From: a virus
DNA: 64,000 bases
Strand: one strand, 5' to 3'
Virus record (IMG/VR): IMGVR_UViG_3300012936_003490
Location: 1 to 64,000 of that record
Below, piece after piece: positions 19,018-37,438 of the stretch. The notes under the pieces are model-generated. The model had not been told where the DNA came from. It saw nothing but the letters and a program-made list of their open reading frames with translations, and did no database searches. A program made the position numbers and the translations under genes. Numbering within the stretch: the stretch's first letter is position 1; each line of letters begins with the position of its first letter.

Positions 19018-20126
19018 ATTTTCCTTTTTGGAATTTTGCTATCTGCTGAACTTACACAACTTTGCGTGATACACATTTTTGGCTCTTTAAATAGATTAAA
19101 GCCTGTTTCGATGTTACCAAGGGGTGCATCATGACAAGAATAACTCCTTTTTACCGAACCGTCAGGCTCCCGTATTATTATTCCGCTAAAACCGGCGTTA
19201 CATGCCCATCCTTCAAATTTATTGAAATTAAAGGCGTTAAAGCGTTCTGCTTGGTCCATATACCATTTGTTACCTTTGGAGTCTTGCATTTCTACTTGCA
19301 TGTGCCAAGGAACACTGGCATCATTTGTACCATTTATTCCTTTAGGTATTTCAAATGTTGGTTTAGGGCGACCCTCCCATTTTCTTTTAAATTCTGTGTA
19401 TGCTCTTTGTGGCATACCGTTCCAGAGTCGTTCAAGTTGATCCTTAGTGTATCCATCAACCACCCTTGACGCAGTCGGATCCGATTGAGGCTTGAGTGTG
19501 ACATTAATTCCTTGTTCGTGGAAGAAGAGAGCGTTTTCCCAATCTCTTTCAAACCATTCAGGAACCATAACTTGATTGATTGTAATTTGTACATCGTATT
19601 CTTGACACAGGATTAATTTGTCTGCAAACTCCTGCATCCTCTCCTTTGTGTTTACATGTTCTGTGTGCAGACTTGCTGTAATACTTGCTCTATGGAACGG
19701 CTTTGCATACTCTACATAAGTTTCAAACCACTTCATTGGACGACTACAGTTGCTCGTCATGTGTATACTTGTATAGTTTGTATTTGCTACATCATCTGCT
19801 AGATGTTTTAGTATGTCCAAGTATCCAGGATGGAAAGTAGGTTCTCCTCCTGACAAGGAGAAGTGGAAAGAATTGAAGCCGTTGAGTCTAGCTTGACGTT
19901 TGATTTCATCCACTGTAAGCAAGCAGAGCTCGGTAGGACGGTGGTCTTTACGATCGCTTCTTGCGTAAGGCCAGCAGTAGGAGCATCTGTAGTTACAGAA
20001 TCTTCCGAGTAACCAGGATACAGTAAATAGATCGCGATAAAGCAGAGTACGTTGACCAACAGAGACAATGTCATCAAAAGGGATCTTAGTAAAGTCATAA
20101 TTACTCCATTTTAAATCTTCACTCAT
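19014..20126 (-). CDS. radical SAM protein (W..G..CNYxCxYC subfamily, C-terminal Cys cluster)
   Basis: CNYRCSYC, SGGEPT; C-terminal CNAG...SC...C...C. Confidence 0.9.
   Translation of the reverse strand: MSEDLKWSNYDFTKIPFDDIVSVGQRTLLYRDLFTVSWLLGRFCNYRCSYCWPYARSDRKDHRPTELCLLTVDEIKRQARLNGFNSFHFSLSGGEPTFHPGYLDILKHLADDVANTNYTSIHMTSNCSRPMKWFETYVEYAKPFHRASITASLHTEHVNTKERMQEFADKLILCQEYDVQITINQVMVPEWFERDWENALFFHEQGINVTLKPQSDPTASRVVDGYTKDQLERLWNGMPQRAYTEFKRKWEGRPKPTFEIPKGINGTNDASVPWHMQVEMQDSKGNKWYMDQAERFNAFNFNKFEGWACNAGFSGIIIREPDGSVKRSYSCHDAPLGNIETGFNLFKEPKMCITQSCVSSADSKIPKRKM
19808..20098 (-). CDS. overprinted +1-frame membrane-anchored protein (96 aa) nested in a radical SAM gene
   Basis: GGAG-5 nt-ATG; N-terminal hydrophobic helix LLMTLSLLVNVLCFIAIYLLY; host codons here are conspicuously C/G-ending. 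Confidence 0.6.
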   Translation of the reverse strand: MTLLRSLLMTLSLLVNVLCFIAIYLLYPGYSEDSVTTDAPTAGLTQEAIVKTTVLPSSACLQWMKSNVKLDSTASILSTSPCQEENLLSILDTWTY

Positions 20127-20131
20127 GAATT

Positions 20132-20160
20132 ATTGTAGCACCTTTACATAAACTTGTCAA
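20132..20160 (-). promoter_or_regulatory. sigma70-type promoter TTGACA-17-TACAAT with extended -10 (TGn)
   Basis: TTGACA at 20160-20155, 17-nt spacer, TACAAT at 20137-20132. The ATG at 20126 falls at the expected transcription start, implying a leaderless mRNA. Confidence 0.75.
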
Positions 20161-21102
20161 CTATAGTTTATCTTTAATAAATGTATCTCTTTTATTTTGT
20201 TTACATACTTTTTCGCAACGTGGAATTCTATTATCAGATGTCCAACTATTTTGTATGTCTGTCCAAACTTTTCCATTTAGTGCTTGTTCTACACTTACAT
20301 TTTTTAGATTTATGTCAAACATGTAATCATTATCAATTAAAATTTCTTCAAACCTGTCTTTTGTTTTTCCGCTTACTGGATATTCTAACATTTTTGCATT
20401 AAGATGACAACAGGGTATAACATTGCCCATGTGATTGACAAATATACGTTTTTGATTTGCATATTTACAACTTATGCAAGTAGATTCTTCTACTTCTATT
20501 TTTTTATGTTTTACACCGCCGGTATCTTTTCTATGGCTAATTATAGTTTTGAATGCTTTAAATCCTTCATCTTTGGCCATTTGCCTTGCTATTTCAAGTT
20601 GGTGTTCGTTATGCTCAAAACTTATAAACTGCCAATTTGCTTTGCCGCCGGCGGCAATAAATGCTCTAAAGTTTTGCTGTACTTTTTTGAATTTAGAACC
20701 TTCTCTATATACTTCAGATAATTCGTCGCTTCCGTCTATGCCCCAAGTAACTCTATGACTCTTAGGCAATATTCCTGCAAGTTCAGTCCACCATTTTGTA
20801 GTACGCAAACTACCATTTGTTGCAACATTTATATGTACGTCCCAATCAGCAAAGTGTTTCACAATATCAAAAAATTGAGGATGACTACAAGGTTCGTCAA
20901 CACTACCGCAAAAATTTATAATTTTCATATTAGGAAACATCTGCTTTTGAAACTTTTCTTTAATAGTTTCTATATCAAGATATGTTTTATTTAATATTTG
21001 ATCGGCATATTTAGATTCAACACGAAAACATCCTTTGCATTTTATATTGCAAAAACTTGTAAGTTCTATGTCGATCCATTCTAAGGTATCAGCTGTCCAC
21101 AT
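20161..21102 (-). CDS. radical SAM protein with C-terminal SPASM/twitch-like domain
   Basis: CNIKCKGC, NFCGSVDEP; C-terminal C...PCC...CxxxC. Confidence 0.9.
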   Translation of the reverse strand: MWTADTLEWIDIELTSFCNIKCKGCFRVESKYADQILNKTYLDIETIKEKFQKQMFPNMKIINFCGSVDEPCSHPQFFDIVKHFADWDVHINVATNGSLRTTKWWTELAGILPKSHRVTWGIDGSDELSEVYREGSKFKKVQQNFRAFIAAGGKANWQFISFEHNEHQLEIARQMAKDEGFKAFKTIISHRKDTGGVKHKKIEVEESTCISCKYANQKRIFVNHMGNVIPCCHLNAKMLEYPVSGKTKDRFEEILIDNDYMFDINLKNVSVEQALNGKVWTDIQNSWTSDNRIPRCEKVCKQNKRDTFIKDKL

Positions 21103-22501
21103 CTTTAAAAATATCTCTCATTTCCGGAAATGTATCTGCAAATTTTATTCCTCTTTGTTTGTCGCAAAGTTCTAAAAATTCTTTCATTTCAGGCAAACGT
21201 ACACTCCAATCTTCGCTGTCCATAAAACTTAGAATACCTTCTAGTCGTTTTATACCATATTCTGCTGTTCGCCATTTGTTGTAATCAACTTTACCTTTGT
21301 GCCATGTTGGAACACCTAACTGCCGATTCTTTTCCCACCACGGATACCATGACTCATATTTTTTATGACATTCTTCTTTGAACCATTTAGGTAAAACTTT
21401 TACATTTAAATGGCCTGGCCAATATACAAAGTGTTGACTAATACCACCTGCACCAAACGGCCACATGTTAACTTTACGAAAACCTTGTTCTAGTTTCCAT
21501 TGTATTAGGTCTGGAAGATAATAAACGTTAAGAGCTTGAACAGCGCAAGCAATGGTTATTTCTACATTGTTTGTTGTTTCTTTATCCAGTCTATGAAATG
21601 TGTTTACTTGATTAGCCCATTCGCTAGGATAACGTATATAACTGTTCATTTCTTTGATGCTGTCAATGCTGTAGTGAAATCTTACCAATTTAAAATGACT
21701 CCAAAGTTCAAATAAATCTTCACGCCATTCTACACCATTTGAATTGTAGCGTAGTTCTAGATCTTTCGCATATCCCATCTTAATAGCATGTTCGAGTATT
21801 TCGTAGTGTTCTTCAATAATAAGACTTTCACCGCCAGCAAAATAAATTTGTTGCATACTTGGCATCTGCTCATAAAACTGTTTCCAAAATGTTGGATTTT
21901 GTTTATGCCAATTGTAACTACTACCGTTAGTGCTACCTTTGTCTTTCCATTGCATAATCTCTTTTAGTGATTCATTTTTTACAGCAGGAAAAATTGCTTT
22001 GTAATCTTTGATCCAACCAGAGCTGTCATGCGGACTACACATAACACATGCTAATTGACACTTAGTTCCAAAACGTAAATCAATGTATGCTAGATTAGGA
22101 GGAACGCTTCCGTCCGGATTTGTTTCTTCTAATATCTTGTTAATATCAACACGCTTACTCCAATATCTAGTTTCCCATTGTCTTTTACTTTTATGGCCAG
22201 CCGCTTCTTCTTTGTAACACTTTAAACAACTTGGTGGTTGTTCGCCATTAAGCATTTGCAGACGAACATTCTTCATATATGTGCTATTCCATGCTGTTTC
22301 AAAATCACTTACATTTAAATTGTTGGGTTTGCCGTCATCAGTTTTCAGAATACCTACTTGGCCGCCATGTTCTTTATCATTTGTAGGACCAACACTACTA
22401 GCATTTGCTGTACAGCATACACGCATACTGCCGTCTGGTCTTGTGCTAAGATGTACCCAGGGTAATAAGCAAAAAGTGTCTGAGGGATATTTATCGTTCA
22501 T
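21089..22501 (-). CDS. radical SAM protein with N-terminal twitch-like domain
   Basis: CLLPW...VCC...CLKC, CQLACVMC and AGGES. Confidence 0.9.
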   Translation of the reverse strand: MNDKYPSDTFCLLPWVHLSTRPDGSMRVCCTANASSVGPTNDKEHGGQVGILKTDDGKPNNLNVSDFETAWNSTYMKNVRLQMLNGEQPPSCLKCYKEEAAGHKSKRQWETRYWSKRVDINKILEETNPDGSVPPNLAYIDLRFGTKCQLACVMCSPHDSSGWIKDYKAIFPAVKNESLKEIMQWKDKGSTNGSSYNWHKQNPTFWKQFYEQMPSMQQIYFAGGESLIIEEHYEILEHAIKMGYAKDLELRYNSNGVEWREDLFELWSHFKLVRFHYSIDSIKEMNSYIRYPSEWANQVNTFHRLDKETTNNVEITIACAVQALNVYYLPDLIQWKLEQGFRKVNMWPFGAGGISQHFVYWPGHLNVKVLPKWFKEECHKKYESWYPWWEKNRQLGVPTWHKGKVDYNKWRTAEYGIKRLEGILSFMDSEDWSVRLPEMKEFLELCDKQRGIKFADTFPEMRDIFKDVDS

Positions 22502-22515
22502 ATTGTACTTATTTC

Positions 22516-23745
22516 TTAAGATATGCTCTCTAATTGTTTATTGACTTGCATTAATTTTTCATCACGACTTCTTGTTTCCGATCCGCAATGCTTGCCACAT
22601 CTTACTATTCGAGGAAATTTTTTATCAAAAGTTGTGTTGTCAAAACTTTTGTTTAGATCATTCGTAAAAAACCTATGATCCATAATTGCAGATAAAGTAT
22701 GGAACTTTACATTATTCCAATCATCTGCATACTGATTCTCATAGTGAGACAAACGTTCATAATCACGTCTATCGCTTATCCAATCGTATTCTTTTGATTC
22801 ATGAGGTTGAATAGGATAATGATAAAATGTGCTAAAATAACAACACTGCCAAACTCTGCCTGTATAGTCTATACTTATTTGACGTTTGTTAAACCATTCG
22901 CACTCGATCTCAGTGCTGTTAATATTTTCTTTTACTGAACGTTTATACCAAGGTTTATTAGGATATTCGCTTCCTATTTGTTTATCTTCTGGTATTACTA
23001 GTTCTGCATACTGAGAAATTGTTTTGATATCTTCTTTGTTTATATTTTTCTTTTTTTGACTCAAATTATCTATTTTTATTTTATTTGTGTTATGGCGCAA
23101 TCTAGATCTTCTAATTTTAAATTTATGAAATCCTAGCTGTTTAGCCATTGCTTTTGCTTTTTCTATTTGATGTTCGTTATGCTCAAAGGCAATGAAACTC
23201 CATACACATCTGACGCCACTTGCTATACATGTTTTAGCATTTTCTATAACTTTATCAAAATTAACTCCTCGTCTATACAGTTGGTGTGTATCATCGTCTA
23301 CACCATCTAGAGCAAAAACAATTACACTAGTTTTATCATATTTTTGTTTAATAATTTTGCACAGAGACGTCCACCATTTTTCGTCATGTAATCCTCCGTT
23401 TGTTTCACACATAAAACGTAATTTTTCTGTAAGTTTATTTTTTAATCTATATTGAGAAAACTTGTTTACATTATCAGCAATTTTATCTACTATTGTATGA
23501 CAATCAGGATGAAGTATAAAATCTCCGTATGTTCCTGTAAAGTTTATGTAACGTGCATTTTGTGATACAGTTGTATCAAAGATATTGTCTATAAACATTT
23601 TATCTAACAAACCTGCTGATCCAACTTCTATAAAAGGATTAATTTCATCTGTTCCCTGCACAAATCTTTGGCAGTCTAAACATCTGCTGTTACAATTGCT
23701 TGTAATTTCTAGATGTATTCCTTGGTCGTGCATATCAAATTGCAT
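22516..23745 (-). CDS. radical SAM protein with C-terminal SPASM/twitch-like domain
   Basis: CNSRCLDC; C-terminal C...QCC...CGKHC. Probable start is ATG 23745 (track start 23763). Confidence 0.9.
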   Translation of the reverse strand: MQFDMHDQGIHLEITSNCNSRCLDCQRFVQGTDEINPFIEVGSAGLLDKMFIDNIFDTTVSQNARYINFTGTYGDFILHPDCHTIVDKIADNVNKFSQYRLKNKLTEKLRFMCETNGGLHDEKWWTSLCKIIKQKYDKTSVIVFALDGVDDDTHQLYRRGVNFDKVIENAKTCIASGVRCVWSFIAFEHNEHQIEKAKAMAKQLGFHKFKIRRSRLRHNTNKIKIDNLSQKKKNINKEDIKTISQYAELVIPEDKQIGSEYPNKPWYKRSVKENINSTEIECEWFNKRQISIDYTGRVWQCCYFSTFYHYPIQPHESKEYDWISDRRDYERLSHYENQYADDWNNVKFHTLSAIMDHRFFTNDLNKSFDNTTFDKKFPRIVRCGKHCGSETRSRDEKLMQVNKQLESIS

Positions 23746-24940
23746 ACTCAACACCAGTAACATGATTAGACATTAAAGATTTAAAAGTTTGTGCATCACT
23801 GCTTTTTGTTGCACACAGGCCGCATCTACAAATCATATTAGGACAAATTATAGGTTCTAATGTTCCTGATGCAAGTTGCTTTTCTACACTGTCTGTAAAT
23901 TTTTTGTAATCTGTAATAGATCCAACTGCTCCTCTTTGTTTTCCAATTTTAGCTTGACATGTTTGATGATGAAAAATTTGATCAGTTTGACTTTCAAGAT
24001 GTAAGAAAAACCAATTCACTCCACAATACCAATCTAAAAATCGTGTATCTGAAACATATCTTTGTTGTTCTGTTGTGCCGCATTTCAAACCGCAACTAAG
24101 TTGATGGTTACTACAACAATGTCTACCTTCTATAGTATATGTTTTAGTTTTATCTGCCTGTAATTTTTTAAATGTTTCTCCTACATCTTTTTTCATTTTA
24201 CGATGAAGTTTGACCTCTTTGTTAACATTTTCAACTTTTTTAGTTGTGGTTGTAGCAATTTTTGTTTTACTGCTTTTACTGTTCTTATTTTGCCAGTAGT
24301 TTTTTATCCAACTACTCTGCTCATAACTGTAGGGTAAACCGTTTATTACCCTCGGCATATACTTGACATCATGTTCTTCCATTACATCTATAAAATCTAA
24401 ACACTCTTTCCAATAATTATCATATGGATGCATCATTAAATTAACTTTAAAACTTTTTAATTCTTGCTTTAATAGAAGAGTATTTTCTCTCACTTTTTGT
24501 TTGATTTTTTCTTTGCTATCACAGTGGTAACTTAATGTTATACCTCTAAAATTTTTTGCAAGTAGCGGAATATGTTTTTGTGCAAAACTACCGTTAGTTG
24601 TAAGTATAGTGTACACATCATAATCAAAGTCTTGAAAACTTTCTTTGAGATAAGAACTAAAGTCAACAAAACAAGGATTTGCTGTTGGCTCTCCACCTGT
24701 AAGACTTAAACTTGCTGTCTTTTCTGTTCTATATGGCATGATAATTTTTAAGTAATCTTTAACTAAGTCCACACCCTTAACTAGTTCGTTAAAACTAGGA
24801 AAAGGACTTACAAGGTCGTGTCTATCATCTCCGCAGTAAGCACAATCAAAATTACACCGTTTTCCTGTATCCCAAGTGATAATAAACTGATTTGTTTTTA
24901 CAGGATCAATGCTGTTATATGTTCCGTTTTCTCTATCCAT
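23735..24940 (-). CDS. radical SAM protein (W..G..CNFxCxYC subfamily)
   Basis: CNFDCAYC, TGGEPT; Cys-rich C-terminus (CPNMICRCGLC). Confidence 0.9.
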   Translation of the reverse strand: MDRENGTYNSIDPVKTNQFIITWDTGKRCNFDCAYCGDDRHDLVSPFPSFNELVKGVDLVKDYLKIIMPYRTEKTASLSLTGGEPTANPCFVDFSSYLKESFQDFDYDVYTILTTNGSFAQKHIPLLAKNFRGITLSYHCDSKEKIKQKVRENTLLLKQELKSFKVNLMMHPYDNYWKECLDFIDVMEEHDVKYMPRVINGLPYSYEQSSWIKNYWQNKNSKSSKTKIATTTTKKVENVNKEVKLHRKMKKDVGETFKKLQADKTKTYTIEGRHCCSNHQLSCGLKCGTTEQQRYVSDTRFLDWYCGVNWFFLHLESQTDQIFHHQTCQAKIGKQRGAVGSITDYKKFTDSVEKQLASGTLEPIICPNMICRCGLCATKSSDAQTFKSLMSNHVTGVEYAI

Positions 24941-26177
24941 CTAAATATTTCCGATATCTCTTGTTTAATTTATTCAAGTCTGTATTACGTAGTTTGTCTT
25001 GAAGTTTTGTATAACTTTTAAAATATTCAAATTCACCTGTGCGTAACTTTCTGTTTTTATCAAAACTTAAAATATTTTCAATCTCTTTGAGTACAAAAGG
25101 ACTAGATGATAGAGTTTTTTTGACATACTTTCTATCTTTGTCTGTCAAAAACGCTGTAGACAGCCAGGATTGTTCTACCTGTGCATATAAAACTTTAATT
25201 CCTCCACATGATCTAAACCAGGCATCAAACTCTGCAATTTTTTTGACATTTAAAATATTATACATTTGCATTACAAAACTTGTTTGTATTTTAACATTTT
25301 CAAAACGTTCAGCTAAATGCAGAAACTTTTCAATGTTATTTTTTACAATATTCCAGTTGCCGTTAGATCTTACATATTCATAATCTTTTTCTGTACCATC
25401 TAAACTTATCATAATAATGCATTTTTTAAATTTAGATACAATTTTATCAAAATCTTTAGGATAAATCGTTCCATTGGTTGTAAAAACTAGTTCGCACTCT
25501 TGTACATTTACACTATTAGAAAATTTATCTATAGCCAACCAAGATTCATCATGTAATAAAGGTTCTCCTCCTAATAACTTCATACGTTTAACATTTTCAA
25601 AAGGAACTTGTTCTACAAAATTATTTGTGTCTTTGTTTTTTTTGTAAAGATGTTGATTAGCATCTTTGACTATTCTATCGCTTATTTTATCAGGATCGGC
25701 ATCAATATATTCATTTTGATGTTTAACCATTTCTTTTGCAATTTGAGAACTGCTTCCAGGTTTACACATTCTACATTGTAAGTTACATAGATTACTTGCT
25801 CTAATATCAAGACCTAAAGGTGCATTAAATTCATTTCCTGTTTCAACTGATAGTTTAAGGCCTTTTCCTTTTGTTAACCGTCTGGCCATATGATAATAAA
25901 TGCGTCTTGCATTATAGCCTAATTTTTTTTCAATGTTTAAACAACTCTTACAAAACTCTGGAACTACACCATCAAGCATTTGTTGCCGCACATTTTTCAT
26001 ATAATCACTTGTCCAATAATCTTTATAATCTTTAAAAGTAAGATCTATTGTTTCTTTTGTATTGCGAGTCTCGCAACAGGGACGTAGTAAGGATTTTTTT
26101 GCATCTCCTTTATAAAATAAATGCATAAAAGGAGCGTAGCACAGGGGCTCAGACTGTTGGTTTTGGTTTTCCATCAA
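24933..26177 (-). CDS. radical SAM protein with N-terminal twitch-like domain
   Basis: CYAPF...PCC...CKSC, CNLQCRMC and LGGEPL; AGGAG SD lies inside the upstream gene. Confidence 0.9.
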   Translation of the reverse strand: MMENQNQQSEPLCYAPFMHLFYKGDAKKSLLRPCCETRNTKETIDLTFKDYKDYWTSDYMKNVRQQMLDGVVPEFCKSCLNIEKKLGYNARRIYYHMARRLTKGKGLKLSVETGNEFNAPLGLDIRASNLCNLQCRMCKPGSSSQIAKEMVKHQNEYIDADPDKISDRIVKDANQHLYKKNKDTNNFVEQVPFENVKRMKLLGGEPLLHDESWLAIDKFSNSVNVQECELVFTTNGTIYPKDFDKIVSKFKKCIIMISLDGTEKDYEYVRSNGNWNIVKNNIEKFLHLAERFENVKIQTSFVMQMYNILNVKKIAEFDAWFRSCGGIKVLYAQVEQSWLSTAFLTDKDRKYVKKTLSSSPFVLKEIENILSFDKNRKLRTGEFEYFKSYTKLQDKLRNTDLNKLNKRYRKYLDG

Positions 26178-27543
26178 AGTGGGCTCCTGGTCTAGATCCT
26201 TCAGTTACATTTGTTGGATCATATCTGTCAAAATATCTTTGTAGCATTGGTTCAATAGTAAGCGTATCAGTTCCTCTGATTTTATTCAACGCTAATTCTG
26301 CCCTCACAAAATCATTTGTATATCTTACTTTGCGCTCATGTGTTTGTGTTTTATCAAGTTCACTGTGTAGCAAATCAAACCATTGTTGTTCGTCCTTGTT
26401 CATATCAAACTCAACAATACACTCTTGAACTTGCTGTCTAATATAATCCTTGTGGTCATCGTCTAACCAACTTACACTTAGGTACCAAGGATCAACTATA
26501 GGATTAAATGTTACACCATTATGCTTGTTTGAATACTTACGTGATCCTTTAAGGAACCATTCAACATTACGCTTTACTTGGAATGCACTTACAGGCTGGA
26601 ATACATGCATAATACCTGCCCACTTTAGGTTAGGCAATGTAAATATTTTGTCAAATACTTTTTGTTTTTTATCCCATTTAGTACCGTCACGTAAAAATTC
26701 GTCTGTGGCTCCTACGCCATCTACACTAATGTTAAAGCTCACTTCTTTAAACTGAGCAAGTAAGTCATAAATCCTACTTGGTAAACTTGTGCAGTTTGTT
26801 ATTTGATGCAGTCTTACATTGCGAGCTTCTCCGCTGTCTACAATCTTTTTCATAATATTGTAAACACGAGGATCAATAAGTGTTTCGCCTCCACTCATTT
26901 TCAAACGAAATACTTTACTAAAGTCTAAATTACTTACCACATCAAACTTAGGATCTGAATAATCTATTTGCTGTGCTTTACGCATTGCATTCTTACTTTG
27001 TGTAACCATATCCCAATGACTCCAACCCTGTATTTCTGGGTTAGCAAGCACTTCTTGCTCAATTTGGTTACTCCAAAGGCTATTACAACTGCGACATTTC
27101 AAGTTACACAGTTTACTAGGACGTAGATCAATATCCACAGGTTTTTCAAACTCAAGTGTACCCTTTTGAATATCCCAATGTATATCTGTAAAGCCTTCTT
27201 TAAGTTCTAGCTCGTAGCGTTTTATATAATCTAATCTGTCGCTTTTATGATAGATGCCTTCACTTTCCCAACGTCCGCACCACCATTCACAAGACTCTGG
27301 CATTTTACCATCAAGAAAACTTTGACGAATTTCTTGCATTGTCTCGCCTTTCCAAAATTCTTCATGCTGATCTTTAAGACTAGATTCAGTATCCCATCGT
27401 CCAATCACATGACTCATACAACAAAGTTTATATCCTCTGTTGTTTGCATTTATGTATGTGTGCATAAACGGTGCAGGACAGAATTTTTTGTTTGGAACGA
27501 TGCTTTCTAAACGTTCTGCTTCTTTTTTATCTATTTTAGCCAT
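26149..27543 (-). CDS. radical SAM protein with N-terminal twitch-like domain
   Basis: CPAPF...LCC...CEWWC, CNLKCRSC and SGGET. Confidence 0.9.
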   Translation of the reverse strand: MAKIDKKEAERLESIVPNKKFCPAPFMHTYINANNRGYKLCCMSHVIGRWDTESSLKDQHEEFWKGETMQEIRQSFLDGKMPESCEWWCGRWESEGIYHKSDRLDYIKRYELELKEGFTDIHWDIQKGTLEFEKPVDIDLRPSKLCNLKCRSCNSLWSNQIEQEVLANPEIQGWSHWDMVTQSKNAMRKAQQIDYSDPKFDVVSNLDFSKVFRLKMSGGETLIDPRVYNIMKKIVDSGEARNVRLHQITNCTSLPSRIYDLLAQFKEVSFNISVDGVGATDEFLRDGTKWDKKQKVFDKIFTLPNLKWAGIMHVFQPVSAFQVKRNVEWFLKGSRKYSNKHNGVTFNPIVDPWYLSVSWLDDDHKDYIRQQVQECIVEFDMNKDEQQWFDLLHSELDKTQTHERKVRYTNDFVRAELALNKIRGTDTLTIEPMLQRYFDRYDPTNVTEGSRPGAHFDGKPKPTV

Positions 27544-29815: not shown

Positions 29816-31023
29816 ACCATTTCCTCAACTGACTTTCCAAAGACTTTAGAAAAATTTTGATTTTTAATAGTGTCAATTCTATGTGTATAATATATAAATG
29901 CATCTACATCTTTTTTAGATTCTCTTGAATTTTGTAAAGCATGTATAATCATATCTGCCATTTTAATTGCACCTTGACGTTGTAAACTTTTCTCCTGCGA
30001 AAATAGTTTTTTCCTAATTTTTCCAACATGTTTTATAAGATTGTTTTTTTGATTGTATAAAACATCTATGCCTAAATATGTAGGATACTGAACAAAACTA
30101 TGATGCAGTCTGTCTACCGGTAATAATAACATATCGTTAATAATATTTTCTAAATCTAAAATTTGATAAGGTGTTATTGTGTTAGTAGCTTCTAAAATTG
30201 TTTTTTTGTTTTTTTTCTTAAACGTTTGAATATTTGTGATTATATTCTCATATATCCCGTTCCTAAAATAATTATAAAGATTACTACCTCCATCTACACT
30301 AATTTTTATTTGTGATCTACCAAAGTTATTCATATATTCGCTTAGTTTTTCATAATCAACAGGAGTGTTAAAATTGCTAACAATATTCACCCAAATTTTA
30401 TTTCTATTTGGGTGTGCTTGTATGCCTTCTAAAAATTGCCAAAATTGTTTTTGATATAAAGGTTCGCCACCTCCAACATCTATTCTTTTAAGGTTAGGAC
30501 AGTTTTGTATCAAATCAGTTACAAGATCATTTACTTGTTCTTTAGTCCATGATTGATTAGGCCACTGCCTTACCAAATTCTTTATGTCATGTGTGTAATC
30601 ATCTGGCACACGTTCTACTCGTTTTAAAATACTGTTCCATTTACTTGAATAATCAGGAGCACAGTGTCTACAACTAAGGTTACATGCATTACTAAATCTT
30701 ATCTCTATGTATTCAATATTACGTTGTTTAATTTTATTTTGACGATTCAACTTCGTAACCATTTTTTGATTTTGATTACTTTTTTGTCTATAACTTTCTT
30801 GTCCCCTTGATTCTTGATCTTGACAACTTTTACAATGCTCTGGCCAGACACCTTTTGCAAGTGATTGTCTTATTGCTCTAAAATTATCATTATTGATAAA
30901 TTTGCTAGGAGCTACACCTTCAGATATGTTTGCTAGAGAGCCTGTGCCTCTAGGACACATTGTAATTCTATCGTCAGGTTTAAAGTTTACGGCATGAAGT
31001 GCAAAATAACAAGGCAATTTCAT
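29809..31023 (-). CDS. radical SAM protein with N-terminal twitch-like domain (CP in place of CC)
   Basis: CNLSCRHC, GGGEPL; N-terminal C...MCP...CKSC. Confidence 0.9.
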   Translation of the reverse strand: MKLPCYFALHAVNFKPDDRITMCPRGTGSLANISEGVAPSKFINNDNFRAIRQSLAKGVWPEHCKSCQDQESRGQESYRQKSNQNQKMVTKLNRQNKIKQRNIEYIEIRFSNACNLSCRHCAPDYSSKWNSILKRVERVPDDYTHDIKNLVRQWPNQSWTKEQVNDLVTDLIQNCPNLKRIDVGGGEPLYQKQFWQFLEGIQAHPNRNKIWVNIVSNFNTPVDYEKLSEYMNNFGRSQIKISVDGGSNLYNYFRNGIYENIITNIQTFKKKNKKTILEATNTITPYQILDLENIINDMLLLPVDRLHHSFVQYPTYLGIDVLYNQKNNLIKHVGKIRKKLFSQEKSLQRQGAIKMADMIIHALQNSRESKKDVDAFIYYTHRIDTIKNQNFSKVFGKSVEEMVW

Positions 31024-31775
31024 TTTATATTACCTATGTGATTATATAAAAATCTTGCTAGTTCAGTATGTCCTTCTTCTAACGGGTGGTTATCAGGGCC
31101 AATTGAGTAATTCTTATCTTGGCACCATTCTAAGATTCCTTGTTCTCCTAGTGGCCATATATTTTTATTCAGATCAATACATCCGTATGTGTCTATTATT
31201 TCTTTTGTAATATGATTTGGATACCTTTTGTTCCTGCATTTTTCTATCGTGCGATTAATATCATCAAATGTATGATGGTTCATTGTTAACATAACGTAAG
31301 GAATATTGTAACTTTTCAATAACATTTGTGTATCTAATATATTATTCATAGTATAAAATGCACTGCAATGTTGAGAGAAATAAATTTGATGTTTGGCAAG
31401 ATGTTTGGTACTATCATTAGGAAGTTCACTCATCCTTATATCTACCCATTTCGCCATAGATTTTTCCTTCATAAACCTGGATGGCATAAGCGGAATATAG
31501 CCGGTATTATATTCGTTTGCTGGCCAATCTTTATTATATAATTCCCATCTACTAGTCGAACTCCATTGAATAACAGCTATCTTGACTTTGTCTTTATTTT
31601 TTATTATACTTCTAAGTGTAGTTCTTGCTATTCTTGCATTACTTGAACCTCCCATAGCATCGTTAAGATGACTAGGATATCCTAGAAGTTGTGTAAGGAT
31701 ATTACTATATCTACTCTGTCTTTTTTGTTGTAATTCATGTCCATCAGTATAACTGCATCCGTTTGCGTATAACAT
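31020..31775 (-). CDS. SGNH/GDSL-like protein
   Basis: LYANGCSYT, GGSSNARI, QWS...R and DNHP. Probable start is ATG 31775 in a TAATG overlap. Confidence 0.7.
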   Translation of the reverse strand: MLYANGCSYTDGHELQQKRQSRYSNILTQLLGYPSHLNDAMGGSSNARIARTTLRSIIKNKDKVKIAVIQWSSTSRWELYNKDWPANEYNTGYIPLMPSRFMKEKSMAKWVDIRMSELPNDSTKHLAKHQIYFSQHCSAFYTMNNILDTQMLLKSYNIPYVMLTMNHHTFDDINRTIEKCRNKRYPNHITKEIIDTYGCIDLNKNIWPLGEQGILEWCQDKNYSIGPDNHPLEEGHTELARFLYNHIGNIK

Positions 31776-32833
31776 TATAATTCCTGCATTCCTATGTGCT
31801 TGCCTATAGGTATACTTTTCTTTGAGCATTGTTTTATACATGTAGACAAGCACCCATTCTCAAAAGAATATTTTTCACTCCAACTATTGACTAAGGCATC
31901 TGAATAATATTCACCTGCTATTATATCATCTAAGTTGTATTTGTGAAGACTGTTAAAACCTACTCCGTATTTTAAAAAAACTTTATTTTGCATCTCAGTA
32001 TAATAGGTGTATCCTCTTGTCAAAGGATTTGATACAAAGCAACACGGCCAAATTGCACCGTTGTAATCTAAAAACATTTTCTTTTCTTGTCGGAAGTGAC
32101 AATCTATATCAATTTCGTTACCGTAGCTTGCAACCAAATTATCAACACTAGATATATCTAATCTTTTACTAGCTCTATTTGGTACAGTTTTAATTCTGTT
32201 ACGAAAAGCCATTGCATTTACTATACCATTTTCACTGTATGTAGATCTATCTCTTCTAAGTACAAAACGTTTCATGCCTATTTTTTTTGCAATTTTTTTA
32301 CAACGCTTAACATCTTTTTTGTTCCAAGGAAATTCTAACATTTGCCATAATGCAGATCCTCCTGCTTTTATAAAAATTTCTGCATGACTTATTATATCAT
32401 CCCAATTTTCTACACCACGATACAAAAAATGATTTTCTTGCATTCCGTCAATGCTAAATCTAACCATATGTTGCGGATGCCTACATAATTTCTCGGCAAG
32501 CTCAACGTAAAATTTATTACTACGCAAACTTCCGTTCGTGTGTATGCTTACAGTGCATTGAGGATTGTATGTATAGATAGTGTCTAGTATATCTAAGAAA
32601 TATTTATGAGCCAAGGGTTCATCTACTGTACCGCAAAATTCAATTTCTTTAATTTGTCTTCCTACATCTGTATCAAATATGTTTTTGAAAACGTCTGTAG
32701 GCAAAAATTTAGTTCCTTCTTGCTTGAATAAAAATTTTGCATTAGGTGCAACCCTTACACAACCTTGACAATCTGCATTGCAAAAATTAGATATCTCTAC
32801 CTGTAATACATCTATCTGTGTCAAATACTTCAT
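31775..32833 (-). CDS. radical SAM protein with C-terminal SPASM/twitch-like domain
   Basis: CNADCQGC, EFCGTVDEP and PCC...CIKQC. Confidence 0.9.
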   Translation of the reverse strand: MKYLTQIDVLQVEISNFCNADCQGCVRVAPNAKFLFKQEGTKFLPTDVFKNIFDTDVGRQIKEIEFCGTVDEPLAHKYFLDILDTIYTYNPQCTVSIHTNGSLRSNKFYVELAEKLCRHPQHMVRFSIDGMQENHFLYRGVENWDDIISHAEIFIKAGGSALWQMLEFPWNKKDVKRCKKIAKKIGMKRFVLRRDRSTYSENGIVNAMAFRNRIKTVPNRASKRLDISSVDNLVASYGNEIDIDCHFRQEKKMFLDYNGAIWPCCFVSNPLTRGYTYYTEMQNKVFLKYGVGFNSLHKYNLDDIIAGEYYSDALVNSWSEKYSFENGCLSTCIKQCSKKSIPIGKHIGMQEL

Positions 32834-33912
32834 GTAAATTGTTCTGCATATGGATCAAATTCGCTTCCGCATTTTTGAGCGCAAACTCCTAATTTTCCTT
32901 GGGCAATACTTTCTTTTTTCCAACTATCTGATATGCTGTTAATTAATTTTCCATTAACAACTGTTTTAATATCATTATTGATAATATTTATACCCTGTTT
33001 TCCTCCTGCAAAATCTATATGATCCCAAATTTGTTCAACACGAGGATCATTATGCCACCATTTATACATTCGTCCAGCTGTCCAACAACATGGCATCAAA
33101 AGTCCTTCGGCAGTTACAAAAATACTACCTTGTTTTGCTACCTTACAAGTTACACTACATTTGTCTAGATAATTGGCCATACTACCGTAAGATTTTTCAA
33201 TCTCTTTTTGTTTAAGCAATGCAAGATTTTGATTTTGTTCTTGTGTTGGTTTTTGTAGTTTTTGTGTATCTGACCCTTTGCGATTTACAGCTTGATGTTC
33301 ATTTTTTGGTTTTATATCAGTTGTAATAAATCTGCCTGATTTCTTCTTTACAAACTTTTCACATCCCCATACTTTTGCAAGTGCTTCTGCTTGTTCAACT
33401 TGATGTTCGTTGTGCTGAAATATTAAATAATCCCATCGAGCTCTACCTCCGGCATCAATAAATGCTCGCATGTTGCGTTCTACATTGTCCCATACAACAT
33501 TCTGCCTGTACAAATGATTAGTGTCCCTAAGGCCGTCCACGCTGAAAATAACAGCACCCATCCTGCCAAAAACTTTGGCCAGTTCACGCCACCATGCTTC
33601 ATCTTTTGCTCCTGCATTTGTATTCATACTAAGCCACATGTTAGGGTTATGTGTTCTAAAATAACGAAAAACTTCAAGTGTATCTCGCGCTATTATAGGG
33701 TCTCCTAGGTTACCACACATATACATTGTTTTTAATTGTTTTATAAAAGAAGGTTTAAATATCTTAACGCAATCTTCGTGAGACAATTCTGCATTTGTAA
33801 TATGAGGGTTGTCTGCACCTCCATTCATATTGCGATCACACATAGGACATGCGGCTTGACAACGTTGGGTAATTTCTAAATGTACTTCTTTAATATCTTC
33901 GTATCTATACAT
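32830..33912 (-). CDS. radical SAM protein with C-terminal SPASM/twitch-like domain
   Basis: CQAACPMC, MCGNLGDP and PCC...CAQKC. Confidence 0.9.
   Translation of the reverse strand: MYRYEDIKEVHLEITQRCQAACPMCDRNMNGGADNPHITNAELSHEDCVKIFKPSFIKQLKTMYMCGNLGDPIIARDTLEVFRYFRTHNPNMWLSMNTNAGAKDEAWWRELAKVFGRMGAVIFSVDGLRDTNHLYRQNVVWDNVERNMRAFIDAGGRARWDYLIFQHNEHQVEQAEALAKVWGCEKFVKKKSGRFITTDIKPKNEHQAVNRKGSDTQKLQKPTQEQNQNLALLKQKEIEKSYGSMANYLDKCSVTCKVAKQGSIFVTAEGLLMPCCWTAGRMYKWWHNDPRVEQIWDHIDFAGGKQGINIINNDIKTVVNGKLINSISDSWKKESIAQGKLGVCAQKCGSEFDPYAEQFT
33480..33602 (-). CDS. overprinted +1-frame 40-aa single-pass membrane peptide nested in a radical SAM gene
   Basis: AGGAG-CAAAAG-ATG; MKHGGVNWPKFLAGWVLLFSAWTALGTLIICTGRMLYGTM*; host codons are locally G/C-ending. 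Confidence 0.6.
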   Translation of the reverse strand: MKHGGVNWPKFLAGWVLLFSAWTALGTLIICTGRMLYGTM

Positions 33913-34612: not shown

Positions 34613-34830
34613 GGTAAAATCAACCTCACATCTTTTCCTGGGCCAGTTTTACTAGGCAAGTCACCGTATTTTCCCACATACCAGTCTATAACAGCAACAT
34701 ACCAGTTTTGACTGTTGTGATGTGCTTGTTTGTTAAATTGATATATGTTGTTATTAGTAGCTTGCATAGTGCTTAGAGCTCTAGCACTTTCTTGCTGTAA
34801 CTGTCTTAGTGATAATTTATTTGTGTCCAA
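34609..34830 (-). CDS. small hypothetical protein (73 aa)
   Basis: TTG start inside the 3' end of the glycosyltransferase gene; overlaps both neighbours in operon-like packing. Confidence 0.65.
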   Translation of the reverse strand: MDTNKLSLRQLQQESARALSTMQATNNNIYQFNKQAHHNSQNWYVAVIDWYVGKYGDLPSKTGPGKDVRLILP

Positions 34831-37438
34831 TTCTCATATACCTCGTATATTTTTCTAAAGGCAACTCACCTGCAAATTTAACTTCGCTTAATGGTGCCAT
34901 TTGTTCAAAATGCGAACTATCTTTGACACAATTTACATGCTCTGGCAAATCAAAATAATCATTACTTTGCAAAATTACTAATTTACCTTGTGGAATTTTT
35001 GCATACCACTCCTCAAAGTTTTCTATATGTTCGCAACTTGTGTTTATAATAGTATCCGGAACATCCTTTAATTCTTCTATTTGGCCGTTATTTTTTACTG
35101 TTTCATACACATGACGTTTATAATCAATATCTAATATGTTCTTTGTCTGTGCTTTAAATTTCCAATTGTCAAGCACTAGATCTTTGTTGAATATTTCTGC
35201 AATTTTCCACACATTTGGGTCAACATCAAAACTTCTAATTTTATCAAACTGAATATTGCGTTCTTGGAATAGTTGCACAATAGTAGAATACCAACCTGCA
35301 CAGATATATACAGTGCCTAAATGCCAGCCAGTTATGTTATCTGCTAGCCATAATTTACTTTTTATCTGTCCTCTACTAAAACTATCTTTGTCGAAATCAA
35401 TGTTTTCTTGTGCAATAGTTTTCAAAGCCTTAACATAAGGGCTTCCTGTGTATTCCTCTAACACTTTATACAATGAATGGATATCGTTTTCCAATATCTT
35501 AAATACATTTTCTAAATTAGGACACAGTCTTCTTAGGCTATACAAGTTTTTTTCTAAAACAGCTTTGCGTAGATCATCATCGCAGTTAACAAGTCTAAAA
35601 ATGCTGTGTAGATTTTTTTCAACCACTGCTTTGCGTAGTTCTTCATTAGGATCTAACTTAAATACACTACTAGGATCTCTGTCATTATAAAATCTGCGAA
35701 CATGTTCTATCTTTCCTTGATATAATAATTCGAATCTATCAAGTAAATCTACAATTTCGTTATCAAGTGTAACTTGTGTTTCTTCTATAGGCACTAGTTC
35801 AGATGGCTTTAATGTTTTATTTTCATTAAATTGTTCTTTCAACCAATCAAAGTCGTTAATTAGCCGAAGATCAGACCCCCTAGAAAGGCCAAACTCCATA
35901 CCAGCCCTAGCACCTCTAATGGCATGTTCACCAAACTTTCTATCGTGTCCCACGGTTGTCCAAGTTTCGAGTCTTTCATTTGTTTCTCCTGTTTTTTGTC
36001 TATCAATTACTTTACTACTTAATTTTGCACATTCTCTAAACGCACTTCTCCAAGTGCTGAATGGATCAGTATTAAATGCAGTAACATTACTTACAACCTT
36101 TATCGGTTTGAAATGCCTGCTAATACTTGTTGTCATATCTGGCTTTGTAGTGTCCATATTTAAGGTTAGTGTCCGAGGGAACAATTTTACTCCGCCATAT
36201 CCGTATTCTAAATCATTTACAGGATTTTTACTGCGCCAAACTTTTACATAATCCTTTTCATCATCTGGAGATATGTAATCAAAATTAAAATCATCTACAA
36301 TTTTAGCGTCACCGTCAACTATCCATATCATTTCTGTTGTGCATAACTTAGCGGCTTCTATATGAGCTTGATGTATGCCCTTTACCCCATGAACACGTTT
36401 TGCTCTTGGAAATCTACTTTTTAAATCATTGTAATTTTGTTCAGCTTCTAATTCGTCATAGGTGATCATTACAATATCATACAATTCTTTTTCTTGAAAA
36501 TTTTCTAACAAGAAATCTTGTCCGGTACGCACAGGCGGCGTATACATACTTTTGAAGAATTTACTTTGTTCTTGTTCGTAAGGATCTATAGGAATATCAA
36601 GTTCTAGTTGTTCTTTTAGTGTAATTCCCAATGCTTGAATTGCTTCTAATAACATTTCTTTAGGATCTGTATCTGCAAGTAGATTCATTTTATTCTTCCA
36701 GAGCTCATTCAAATATTCAAAATCTCTTACATTTACAAAATCCCAATCTGTGCAATTTGTTAGATAACAACCTTCTCTTGCTCCATAAATGGCCCATAAT
36801 CCGTTTTCAGTGTCAGCACCTACAGTCTGCCAGATTTTCAATCTTTGTAAATTTTTCTTGTGTACAGTTTTTTCGAATTTAGAAATACCGGAAATTTTTT
36901 CACCTTCATATAAACTCATCTTTACACCTTCGCGAAAACCTGCTCTCCAGGCTTGCCAAGGTGTTGCATTGTTATACACGTAACTATAGACTTTGTTAAT
37001 TTGCAAATATTGTAAATCCCAGCAAAAATCTACCTGTGCTTGCGGATTATTAGGATCGGCATTTTCATGTGTTTTCATATCTAACACAACTTGTTTAGGC
37101 CAGCATTTGATGCCTCCATTACCGTACGTCAACCCATTTACAATGTTGTATCCACTCCAGCTTATCACACACTTATCAAGATCAACATCATCTTTGAATA
37201 CTAGTTCTTCTTCTACAAACTTAGCGTCTATTATGTTATCTCCATCTATTGTAATAAAACGTTCAGTTTCGCTAAGTTCAGCACATGCTTTATGTGCGGC
37301 ATCTGACCCTTCTACACCATGAATGCGTTTTGCCCAAGGTACTTTTGTAAGAAGGTCAGCGTAATTTTTTTCAGCATTAGGTTCGTCATATGACAAATAT
37401 ATAATATCGTAATCCCGTACTTTAATAATTTGACCCAT
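34817..37438 (-). CDS. fusion protein: two tandem GT-A (GT2-like) glycosyltransferase domains, helical repeat linker and C-terminal SAM-methyltransferase-like domain
   Basis: Duplicated YDI..I.YDE..AE.NY..L....P.AKR.HGV.G...AH...A, DxD motifs (IDGDN, VDGDA) and YG.GG.K..P; C-terminal ICAGWY / SFDVDP / INTSCEH; AGGAG-5 nt-ATG. Confidence 0.8.
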   Translation of the reverse strand: MGQIIKVRDYDIIYLSYDEPNAEKNYADLLTKVPWAKRIHGVEGSDAAHKACAELSETERFITIDGDNIIDAKFVEEELVFKDDVDLDKCVISWSGYNIVNGLTYGNGGIKCWPKQVVLDMKTHENADPNNPQAQVDFCWDLQYLQINKVYSYVYNNATPWQAWRAGFREGVKMSLYEGEKISGISKFEKTVHKKNLQRLKIWQTVGADTENGLWAIYGAREGCYLTNCTDWDFVNVRDFEYLNELWKNKMNLLADTDPKEMLLEAIQALGITLKEQLELDIPIDPYEQEQSKFFKSMYTPPVRTGQDFLLENFQEKELYDIVMITYDELEAEQNYNDLKSRFPRAKRVHGVKGIHQAHIEAAKLCTTEMIWIVDGDAKIVDDFNFDYISPDDEKDYVKVWRSKNPVNDLEYGYGGVKLFPRTLTLNMDTTKPDMTTSISRHFKPIKVVSNVTAFNTDPFSTWRSAFRECAKLSSKVIDRQKTGETNERLETWTTVGHDRKFGEHAIRGARAGMEFGLSRGSDLRLINDFDWLKEQFNENKTLKPSELVPIEETQVTLDNEIVDLLDRFELLYQGKIEHVRRFYNDRDPSSVFKLDPNEELRKAVVEKNLHSIFRLVNCDDDLRKAVLEKNLYSLRRLCPNLENVFKILENDIHSLYKVLEEYTGSPYVKALKTIAQENIDFDKDSFSRGQIKSKLWLADNITGWHLGTVYICAGWYSTIVQLFQERNIQFDKIRSFDVDPNVWKIAEIFNKDLVLDNWKFKAQTKNILDIDYKRHVYETVKNNGQIEELKDVPDTIINTSCEHIENFEEWYAKIPQGKLVILQSNDYFDLPEHVNCVKDSSHFEQMAPLSEVKFAGELPLEKYTRYMRIGHK
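35860..35979 (-). CDS. overprinted +1-frame 39-aa membrane peptide nested in the glycosyltransferase gene
   Basis: AGGAG-AAACAA-ATG; MKDSKLGQPWDTIESLVNMPLEVLGLVWSLAFLGGLIFG*; host frame uses AGG/GGG/CGG codons here. Confidence 0.6.
   Translation of the reverse strand: MKDSKLGQPWDTIESLVNMPLEVLGLVWSLAFLGGLIFG

Follow-up and report, generated by a model that had tools for sequence, protein, structure and literature searches.

Two candidate overprinted genes for small membrane peptides within a glycosyltransferase-like gene and a radical SAM gene of an IMG/VR virus

We analyzed a 64-kb stretch (hereafter the window) of the 77-kb IMG/VR virus record IMGVR_UViG_3300012936_003490, whose completeness estimate is 21% of a genome, with a focus on three open reading frames (ORFs), N1, N2 and N3, which are nested in the +1 frame of larger host genes, termed H1, H2 and H3 respectively. 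A preliminary description of this DNA had proposed that the three constitute a recurrent hidden layer of small membrane proteins overprinted on genes for modification enzymes. Comparison of the host genes with their relatives tips the balance modestly towards a narrower picture, in which N3 and, less surely, N2 would be genuine overprinted genes, whereas N1 would not be a gene. Taken individually, N3 is the best supported of the three and is probably a real overprinted gene; N2 appears rather likely to be one, and N1 is distinctly unlikely to be one. The nested ORFs and their parts are as follows:

35860-35979, minus strand: N3, 39 codons plus stop in the +1 frame, at offset 1459 in H3; the N-terminal half is polar and the C-terminal half hydrophobic
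35986-35990, minus strand: Shine-Dalgarno motif (SD) of N3, AGGAG, 6 nt before the ATG at 35979
35863-35913, minus strand: hydrophobic core of N3, V23-G39, with the family motif VL.LAGS.GFL..LI
33480-33602, minus strand: N2, 40 codons plus stop in the +1 frame, at offset 310 in H2; a further in-frame ATG lies upstream at 33617
33609-33613, minus strand: SD of N2, AGGAG, 6 nt before the ATG at 33602
33504-33572, minus strand: hydrophobic core of N2, F11-G33
19808-20098, minus strand: N1, 96 codons in the +1 frame, at an offset of 28 nt in H1, with GGAG at 20104-20107, 5 nt from the ATG; probably not a gene

The elementary observations of the preliminary description hold. All three ORFs lie on the host strand and in the +1 frame, the offsets of 28, 310 and 1459 (N1, N2 and N3, in this order here and below) each leaving a remainder of 1 on division by 3. 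Their SDs (GGAG at 5 nt, AGGAG at 6 nt and AGGAG at 6 nt) have the same spacing as those of real genes in the window, such as the ones starting at 1603, 1883 and 37438. Each peptide contains a single hydrophobic stretch (Kyte-Doolittle hydropathy, KD19, of 2.46, 1.87 and 1.91), and the G+C content of host third codon positions (GC3) is raised inside the nested ORFs relative to the rest of the host gene (0.43 versus 0.33, 0.48 versus 0.19 and 0.34 versus 0.25). This GC3 signal is better described as a lack of A at the third positions of host codons (A3). The host wobble position is the second codon position of the +1 frame, where an A yields polar or charged residues or stops, and hence selection for a hydrophobic helix appears as avoidance of A-ending host codons, which in turn results in a local excess of GC3. 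In an amino-acid-conditioned scan for A3 depletion over all 20,088 windows of 22 codons in 53 ORFs, the core of N2 emerged as the most strongly depleted stretch of the whole 64 kb (no A versus 7.6 expected, p 1e-5), with N3 second (9e-5) and N1 third (1.4e-4).

ORF length by itself shows no excess, the longest +1 ORF under synonymous permutation being 88±18 codons versus the 96 observed (P 0.25). Those +1 ORFs of at least 39 codons which possess an SD and an ATG number four in the window versus 1.4 expected (P 0.057), and three of this class also contain a hydrophobic stretch, versus 0.33 expected (P 0.007, with thresholds set post hoc). The string AGGAG-N5-7-ATG is found at ten sites in the window, of which six are gene starts, two belong to N2 and N3, and two lead to ORFs of 3 and 10 codons. 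N2 and N3 account for two of only four such internal sites, and each of the two sites lies just 5' of one of the two most A3-depleted windows in the 64 kb. These statistics from the window alone are suggestive, not decisive. Pfam provided no match for any of the three peptides.

Relatives of the host genes allow a more direct assessment. Between 70 and 95 of the best-matching relatives, out of approximately 350-470 IMG/VR homologues, were compared per host gene, and the presence of SD and ATG, an open frame and low A3 were cross-tabulated, with tree-independent pairs being counted on a tree built without the nested region. For N3, 87 distinct homologous segments were recovered, and in 45 of these the +1 frame is open, giving rise to 37 distinct peptides of 38-47 residues in relatives whose host proteins are 52-100% identical in the N3 stretch. 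The peptides conform to the consensus xKQMKDLKxGQxW...LLxVLxLAxSLxFLxxLILx; hydrophobic members of the family are 38-44 residues long, and two stops in a row are common at their end. An ATG is present in 44 of the 45 open homologues; in 12 of the 13 that lack the aligned one, it is found 3-4 codons upstream instead. An SD-like motif precedes 34 of the 45, and under stricter spacing rules SD and ATG occur together with an open frame in 22 sequences and with a closed frame in none. Open frames are likewise associated with low A3: 37 open segments show it and 8 do not, as against one closed segment that shows it and 41 that do not.

The composition of N3 points in the same direction. A-ending host codons in the region of the helix have an observed-to-expected ratio (O/E) of 0.26 in the open set, the gene-wide minimum, versus approximately 1.0 in the closed set. 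When only sites with a majority base other than A are considered, the median frequency of A is 0.125 inside N3 versus 0.30 outside (p 0.003), and ORF-less homologues show no difference. One host codon in the core, which encodes E, K or Q, is GAG, AAG or CAG in 35 of the 45 open homologues and never ends in A, in sequences where 72-78% of all codons for these residues are A-ending. The host residues do vary within N3 (between E, K and Q, or between N, I, T and R, with arginine as AGG or CGG and not AGA), with the residue in the +1 frame remaining small or hydrophobic. In the flanks, representatives of six N3 subfamilies are close to saturated (same-codon fraction of 0.49-0.64 versus 0.49 when permuted), but they contain only 0-1 A in the 19 third positions of the helix, versus 30-43% A in the flanks, and these subfamilies retain the start, the length and the A-free hydrophobic core through about 50% divergence of the host protein. 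A stop-free hydrophobic +1 window is found at N3 in 29 sequences versus 1.0 expected, and is the sole peak of the alignment; outside N3 the null for this count is well calibrated (32 versus 36). The closest relative shows no synonymous difference over the 39 codons of the N3 region, versus 13% elsewhere in the gene. Six N3 relatives have been called as proteins of 38-45 aa by other pipelines, all of them unnamed. As a separate observation, the lowest third-position diversity in the H3 alignment (0.235-0.285 versus approximately 0.44 elsewhere) lies 25-43 codons 5' of the N3 start, at about 36050-36110 of the window; the synonymous O/E of this stretch is 0.79-0.86, and N3 provides no explanation for it.

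In the case of N2, the ATG is present in 48 of 95 distinct orthologues, and 40 of these 48 have an SD at the right distance (AGGAG in 34 and GGAG in 6). The ORF is mostly 40 codons long, with other versions of 35, 39, 44, 68 or 80 codons and three that are cut at codon 7. In a first set of 64 sequences, the host codons that spell the SD, GCA-GGA-GCA, were kept in 28, 25 and 29 of the 30 sequences with the ATG and were variable in those lacking it. These codons run opposite to the trend of the helix in being kept A-ending, and the lowest synonymous diversity of H2 is found at the SD and start of N2 (O/E 0.79-0.82). Within the helix the A3 O/E is 0.24 in ATG-bearing versus approximately 0.9 in ATG-less homologues, and at sites with a majority base other than A the median A frequency is 0.06 versus 0.25 outside (p 0.002), an effect that is not seen in the ATG-less set. 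The frame is open in 39 of the 40 homologues with SD and ATG, and in 9 as against 46 closed among the rest; tree-independent pairs are concordant in 9.0 instances and opposite in none (p 0.004). Even when only codons unable to form stops are considered, all 40 homologues with the start signals have low A3, versus 17 with and 38 without it among the others (pairs 6.5 versus 0, p 0.03). A stop-free hydrophobic +1 window occurs at N2 in 40 of 95 sequences versus 3.6 expected, the next best in the gene being 10 versus 5.0. The nearest whole-gene relatives of the H2 of the window do not have N2, and the N2 tract is closest to that of a clade only about 74% identical overall, which suggests that the cassette has moved by recombination. 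N2 and N3 are hence conserved ORFs that appear to be under compositional selection, and their start signals co-vary with the integrity of the frame.

N1 shows a different behavior. Its full 96-codon frame is confined to the allele class of the window itself (18 sequences, 5 of which have ACG in place of ATG); in most other homologues the frame is closed at codon 62 or 65, and in a dozen or so at codons 10-30. The GGAG is lost (TGG TCN) in 17 sequences, and the start is ACG in 11 of 71, 10 of which keep an open hydrophobic frame. Consistent with this, the presence of SD and ATG is linked neither to an open frame (p 0.2) nor to low A3 (p 0.42). The N1 peptide differs at 20 of 96 residues from that of a relative with an identical host protein in this region, and in comparison with the closest relative the same-codon fraction inside N1 is 0.79, versus 0.84 outside; thus, the peptide drifts at the synonymous rate and is not conserved. 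Its +1/host identity ratio of 0.45-0.50 is below the gene median of 0.53. The hydrophobic segment is placed at residues 7-27 in some lineages and 22-43 in others, and is missing in 12 homologues. An open hydrophobic +1 stretch is found in 50 of 71 homologues versus 4.7 expected, but H1 has comparable peaks that have no start (38 versus 3.4, 19 versus 1.2 and 14 versus 0.4 expected). The first of these lies in alignment columns 83-122 (about 19760-19880 of the window), where, outside the allele class of the window, the +1 frame 3' of the stops at N1 codon 62 or 65 is again hydrophobic; the 38 sequences concerned mostly have no start codon, and the stretch is A-poor and T-rich. In a sister family (identity about 57%) the codon aligned with the start is ACG or ATA, and a stop appears by codon 8-19. 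The GGAG...ATG string of N1 is itself spelled by conserved host residues, W-S-N-Y-D (TGG AGT AAT TAT GAC). N1 is probably a by-product, namely an open and hydrophobic +1 frame that results from an A-poor, T-rich sequence located 3' of host codons that happen to spell GGAG...ATG. A sorting of N1 homologues into helix 'flavours' that had been considered as support was circular and was dropped.

Of the proposals in the preliminary description, that of separately initiated, overprinted genes for small membrane peptides therefore survives well for N3 and fairly well for N2, where SD, ATG, open frame and avoidance of A are present or absent together, and does not extend to N1. The start signals and the open +1 frame are conserved in homologues for N3 and, in part of the orthologues, for N2; for N1 the start signals are unlinked to the state of the ORF. 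The notion of three ORFs with one shared design breaks down at N1, on account of its unlinked SD and ATG, the lack of synonymous constraint, the non-conserved peptide and the other hydrophobic +1 windows in H1. The accompanying caveat, that the +1 frame of T-rich third positions is intrinsically hydrophobic, turns out to be the right explanation for N1.

Certain generic tests require care in this setting. Pooled synonymous diversity in the mixed homologue sets gives O/E values of 1.05, 1.05 and 0.95, i.e. no visible constraint, but this test is misleading because ORF-bearing and ORF-less alleles are mixed, and because exchanges among T, C and G are scored like exchanges to A. The expected reduction in synonymous variability is seen only as shallow dips in the ORF-bearing sets, with the minimum at the SD and start of N2, and is not apparent in the pooled sets. 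Within the ORF-bearing N2 and N3 sets the avoidance is strong and specific to A, the segment otherwise being as diverse synonymously as its flanks. Stops in the +1 frame are depleted in homologues of all three ORFs (O/E 0.43, 0.69 and 0.49), but this was set aside as support, being confounded by ascertainment on a reference with an open frame, by shared ancestry and by local composition; a control stop-free run in H1, which has neither SD nor helix, shows an O/E of 0.38, much like N1. This control is the second long +1 ORF in H1 (window 19334-19594, minus strand, 86 aa); it has no SD at its first ATG, only a weak AGGA before an internal ATG at 19504, and it lacks a hydrophobic stretch. NTA codons in H2 and H3 are equally rare in stop-forming and harmless contexts (0.35 versus 0.34, and 0.31 versus 0.30). 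An NTG codon followed by one starting with A, which creates TGA across the boundary, is avoided both inside and outside the nested ORFs in the H1, H2 and H3 alignments (0.05 versus 0.26, 0.09 versus 0.14 and 0.10 versus 0.17 respectively; L001-L396), and no avoidance of NTA followed by A or G is seen outside the nested ORFs. The host genes are mosaics, and each nested region coincides with a tract in which some otherwise distant homologues are close to the window. No consensus RNA structure was recovered (3 pairs, -1.5 kcal/mol), and fold z-scores of +0.5 to +1.25 indicate no excess of stability. A consensus scan for promoters and terminators found nothing above shuffled sequences, with 8 promoter-like sites in the region versus 14 in shuffles.

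Taking these observations together, we propose that N2 and N3 might each be translated from their own AGGAG-6 nt-ATG within the host mRNA in the +1 frame. The product would be a peptide of about 40 residues combining a short charged N-terminus (MK...) with a single transmembrane helix, and both its translation and its insertion into the membrane are predicted from sequence. Selection for the hydrophobic helix would cause the host gene to avoid A-ending codons, with T, C and G all being tolerated. Both ORFs would represent accessory cassettes, which are present in part of the orthologues and scattered over the tree of the flanking gene, a distribution that fits exchange by recombination.

Several observations weigh against this proposal. 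The dips in synonymous diversity are shallow for both N2 and N3 (O/E 0.79-0.96), and the same-codon fraction is not raised inside either of them (0.55 versus 0.55 in the flanks for N2, 0.58 versus 0.60 for N3). Identity of the N2 peptide is at background level, with a +1/host ratio of 0.6, and an R, E or K occurs inside the helix of some N2 homologues; for N3 the tree-independent contrasts are too few for significance. Each of the two ORFs is lacking in about half of the orthologues, and the state of the ORF changes 8-18 times on the flank trees. SD, ATG, open frame and A-poor codons all lie within about 150 nt, so that one old haplotype shuffled by recombination could mimic their co-variation, which hence does not amount to proof. 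Finally, H1 retains A-poor hydrophobic +1 windows with no link to start signals, implying that some other compositional force exists.

These points lead to the alternative that none of the three is a gene, and that they are A-poor segments with raised GC3 in a mosaic, i.e. recombination tracts or old alleles, with an SD-like string and an ATG hitch-hiking and a frame that is open and hydrophobic only on account of the scarcity of A. We consider this possible though not probable. It is favored by the pervasive mosaicism (the N2 segment has a same-codon fraction of 0.85 to the homologue L127 inside versus 0.54 outside, and the closest whole-gene relatives do not have the ORF), by the scatter of ORF states over flank trees, by the several persistent hydrophobic windows without starts in H1, by the equal rarity of NTA in both contexts in H2 and H3 and by the hardly reduced synonymous diversity. 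It sits poorly with the fact that the ORF-bearing segments are as diverse as their flanks at synonymous sites, yet specifically lack A; that the six near-saturated N3 subfamilies keep ORF, start (through the compensating upstream ATG) and length across a host divergence of about one half; that changes in host amino acids preserve the hydrophobicity of the +1 frame; and that two of the four strong internal SD-ATG sites are positioned exactly before the two most A-poor windows. The opposite possibility, that all three are real and that N1 encodes a fast-evolving helix of drifting position, as had been put forward earlier, appears very unlikely. The A3-poor window of N1, third in the whole window, does begin exactly at its SD-ATG, open and hydrophobic homologues far exceed expectation, the ATG is kept in 60 of 71 sequences, above the approximately 43 expected from Tyr codon usage, and the GGAG, too, is missing from 6 of the 9 sequences that stop early. 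Nevertheless, the start signals of N1 are statistically unlinked to the state of its ORF, the hydrophobic segment shifts between lineages or is missing, a fifth or so of the residues differ where the host protein is identical, other windows of H1 show the same hydrophobic excess, and N1 is absent from the sister family.

It is also conceivable that the A-poor patches serve the host gene or its mRNA, as clusters of rare or 'accurate' codons involved in pausing or accuracy, as RNA structure, or through avoidance of AU-rich nuclease sites or promoter-like sites. N1 and N2 do overlie the most conserved parts of the radical SAM proteins (host identity 0.89-0.98), and G/C-ending codons are rare in this genome. 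But ORF-less orthologues with the same conserved host residues have a normal A3 (O/E 0.9-1.0), common T-ending codons are enriched along with those ending in G and C, which is a pattern of 'not A' and not one of rare codons, N3 overlies a poorly conserved host stretch (identity 0.54-0.59), and the lack of a consensus RNA structure and the unexplained SD-ATG combinations further render this account highly improbable. Programmed +1 ribosomal frameshifting, which would generate membrane-anchored isoforms of the enzymes with replaced C-termini, is barely probable at all. Where relatives encode the 221-aa protein on its own, N3 is located close to the 3' end of the gene, and a shift there would exchange the C-terminal helices for a membrane anchor; the conserved SD and ATG and the compensating upstream ATG instead point to independent initiation, a shift in the mid-gene position of N2 would destroy the enzyme, and no conserved slippery or stall motif was noticed, though no systematic search for one was made. 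Independent translation of N3 and N2 accordingly remains the reading that we prefer.

The host genes of the three ORFs are as follows:

34817-37438, minus strand: H3, host of N3, encoding an 873-aa fusion protein of the glycosyltransferase (GT)-GT-methyltransferase (MT)-like type
32830-33912, minus strand: H2, host of N2, encoding a radical SAM protein of 360 aa (Pfam PF04055, E 5.9e-8)
19014-20126, minus strand: H1, host of N1, encoding a radical SAM protein of 370 aa (Pfam PF04055, E 2.6e-14)

H1 (54.2 bits) and H2 (33.5 bits) both pass the PF04055 gathering score of 29.5 bits, which places them in the radical SAM superfamily. The stretch of H3 overlapped by N3 is its second domain, which in most relatives is a stand-alone protein of 221-225 aa; examples are found in L344 (55-720) and L353 (55-723), and in L344 a homologue of H1 directly follows the stand-alone gene. 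The 221-aa homologue is a member of an unnamed family that counts more than 4,600 sequences, and neither H3 nor this family has a match in Pfam. An AlphaFold model of the domain in its stand-alone form (pLDDT 86.9) weakly resembles GT-A glycosyltransferases, the top Foldseek matches being the GT-A enzymes PGANT9B, RmlT, PBCV-1 A64R and K4CP, with weak scores (E 2e-4 to 1e-3, TM 0.35-0.43).

The window as a whole has a G+C content of approximately 33%, with nearly all genes on the minus strand, and includes baseplate and tail-fibre genes, a giant ORF of 4,981 aa and a run of radical SAM genes bordered by GT-like genes; the neighbors of the nested-ORF host genes are radical SAM, tail-fibre and baseplate genes. 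In T4-like marine pelagi- and cyanomyophages the host recognition cluster is situated between the giant VrlC gene and the tail fibres and contains cassettes of glycosyltransferase and radical SAM genes (PMC7029224), and the gene layout of the window matches this published cluster. DNA and protein searches of a GenBank phage collection provided no match to the window, whereas IMG/VR holds hundreds of relatives of the host genes. In the radical SAM array (window 17878-33912, minus strand) 12 ORFs reach the PF04055 cut-off, many being joined via overlapping stop and start codons, and several of them possess SPASM or 4Fe-4S auxiliary domains, in some cases N-terminal to the SAM core. The 34-nt gap 5' of H1 contains a perfect sigma-70-type promoter string, TTGACA-17 nt-TACAAT (window 20132-20160, minus strand), which ends 5 nt 5' of the H1 ATG at 20126; transcripts starting there would have little or no leader, and the first SD-led ATG downstream would be that of N1. 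GCGATCG, the core of the cyanobacterial HIP1 palindrome, is found once, at window 19951-19957 (minus strand) in a near-identical mosaic tract of H1, which is possibly meaningless.

Small genes embedded in the +1 frame of other phage genes include those of two-component spanins, such as lambda Rz1 inside Rz and T7 18.7 inside 18.5 (PMC6139136, PMC5295617). N2 and N3 resemble these in layout, in that the coding sequence of a small protein, putatively directed to the envelope in the case of N2 and N3, has a separate start and is contained entirely within a larger phage gene and its mRNA, in the +1 frame, where gene callers overlook it. Unlike N2 and N3, Rz1-type products are lipoproteins with a lipobox cysteine, and their host gene encodes the partner i-spanin in a lysis cassette. 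The N2 and N3 alignments contain no conserved Cys, the 'LIIC' of N2 in the window being LIIY or LIIF in relatives, and hence the o-spanin lipobox is lacking. An embedded o-spanin was rejected, the hosts of N2 and N3 being radical SAM and GT-A-like enzymes in a tail-fibre and host-recognition island and not an i-spanin in a lysis cassette. The E gene of phiX174, in the +1 frame of D, and the L gene of MS2 encode single-gene lysis proteins of 75-91 aa; they belong to tiny ssDNA and ssRNA genomes in which coding space is limiting, and occur throughout their phage groups. As candidates, N2 and N3 are reminiscent of them in that they would be short single-helix membrane proteins arising from overprinting, with a sequence that is loosely constrained except for the hydrophobic helix. 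They differ in being only about 40 aa long, in residing in a genome of more than 77 kb and in occurring in just part of the orthologues. Viral overprinting in general has been reviewed elsewhere (PMC8227390, PMC6195259).

In bacteria, internal out-of-frame small proteins have been found experimentally by ribosome profiling of initiation sites, most of them without conservation (10.1101/511675). For N2 and N3 the evidence is, in contrast, conservation, and they show no sequence similarity to such proteins, Pfam giving none. AcrZ, MgrB and KdpF are small single-pass membrane regulators. With the profiled internal proteins and AcrZ-type regulators N2 and N3 share a length of at most 50 aa, a single helix, an SD-ATG of their own inside a larger gene and their invisibility to annotation. 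Type I toxins (e.g. Hok, TisB, Ibs and Fst) are free-standing hydrophobic peptides of 20-50 aa repressed by antisense RNA; N2 and N3 share their short and hydrophobic nature but differ in being nested, and a consensus scan, which is weak evidence, found no promoter-like site on the opposite strand at either. Holins possess at least one transmembrane domain and a charged hydrophilic C-terminal tail, usually measure 60-150 aa and are encoded beside an endolysin. N2 and N3 were rejected as holins, given their 39-44 aa, the end of N3 within or right after its helix, and the lack of an endolysin among the scanned neighbors. What characterizes overprinted genes, namely an ORF and a start kept beyond what host constraint and codon usage would provide, is found in N3 and N2 and not in N1. 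Thus, N2 and N3 would be new families of a known kind, embedded +1 genes, and are members of neither the spanins nor the holins.

As for their role, our preferred guess is that N2 and N3 function as co-expressed membrane tethers or modulators of the glycan and radical SAM enzymes of the island, given that each peptide would come from the enzyme's own mRNA and that N3 would be tail-anchored; superinfection exclusion or control of lysis timing are alternative guesses. In a broader and rather unlikely version, a very abundant GT-A-like enzyme family of marine phages and a radical SAM gene of the same island might in part of their members carry hidden genes for membrane peptides of about 40 aa, tail-anchored in the case of the GT-A-like family, which are swapped by recombination and act as tethers or switches for enzymes that modify the host surface, or else in exclusion or the timing of lysis.

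Small membrane proteins encoded by embedded +1 genes are a textbook feature of tiny phages and of spanin pairs. In large marine myophages, which are not short of coding space, such genes are unexpected within genes for biosynthetic enzymes. A practical lesson is that a hydrophobic, SD-led +1 ORF is insufficient as a filter, as N1 shows; candidates may be told from compositional by-products by start signals that co-vary with ORF integrity in relatives, and by a background calibrated within the host gene itself. Translation of N2 and N3, if real, would mean that the synonymous sites of their host genes are not neutral, which matters for analyses of diversity and selection in viral metagenomes, and that in the host-recognition islands of abundant ocean phages a class of membrane micro-proteins goes unnoticed by routine annotation. 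Should the view of hidden cassettes prove true, the host-recognition islands of T4-like marine phages would hold a systematic layer of such unannotated membrane micro-proteins.

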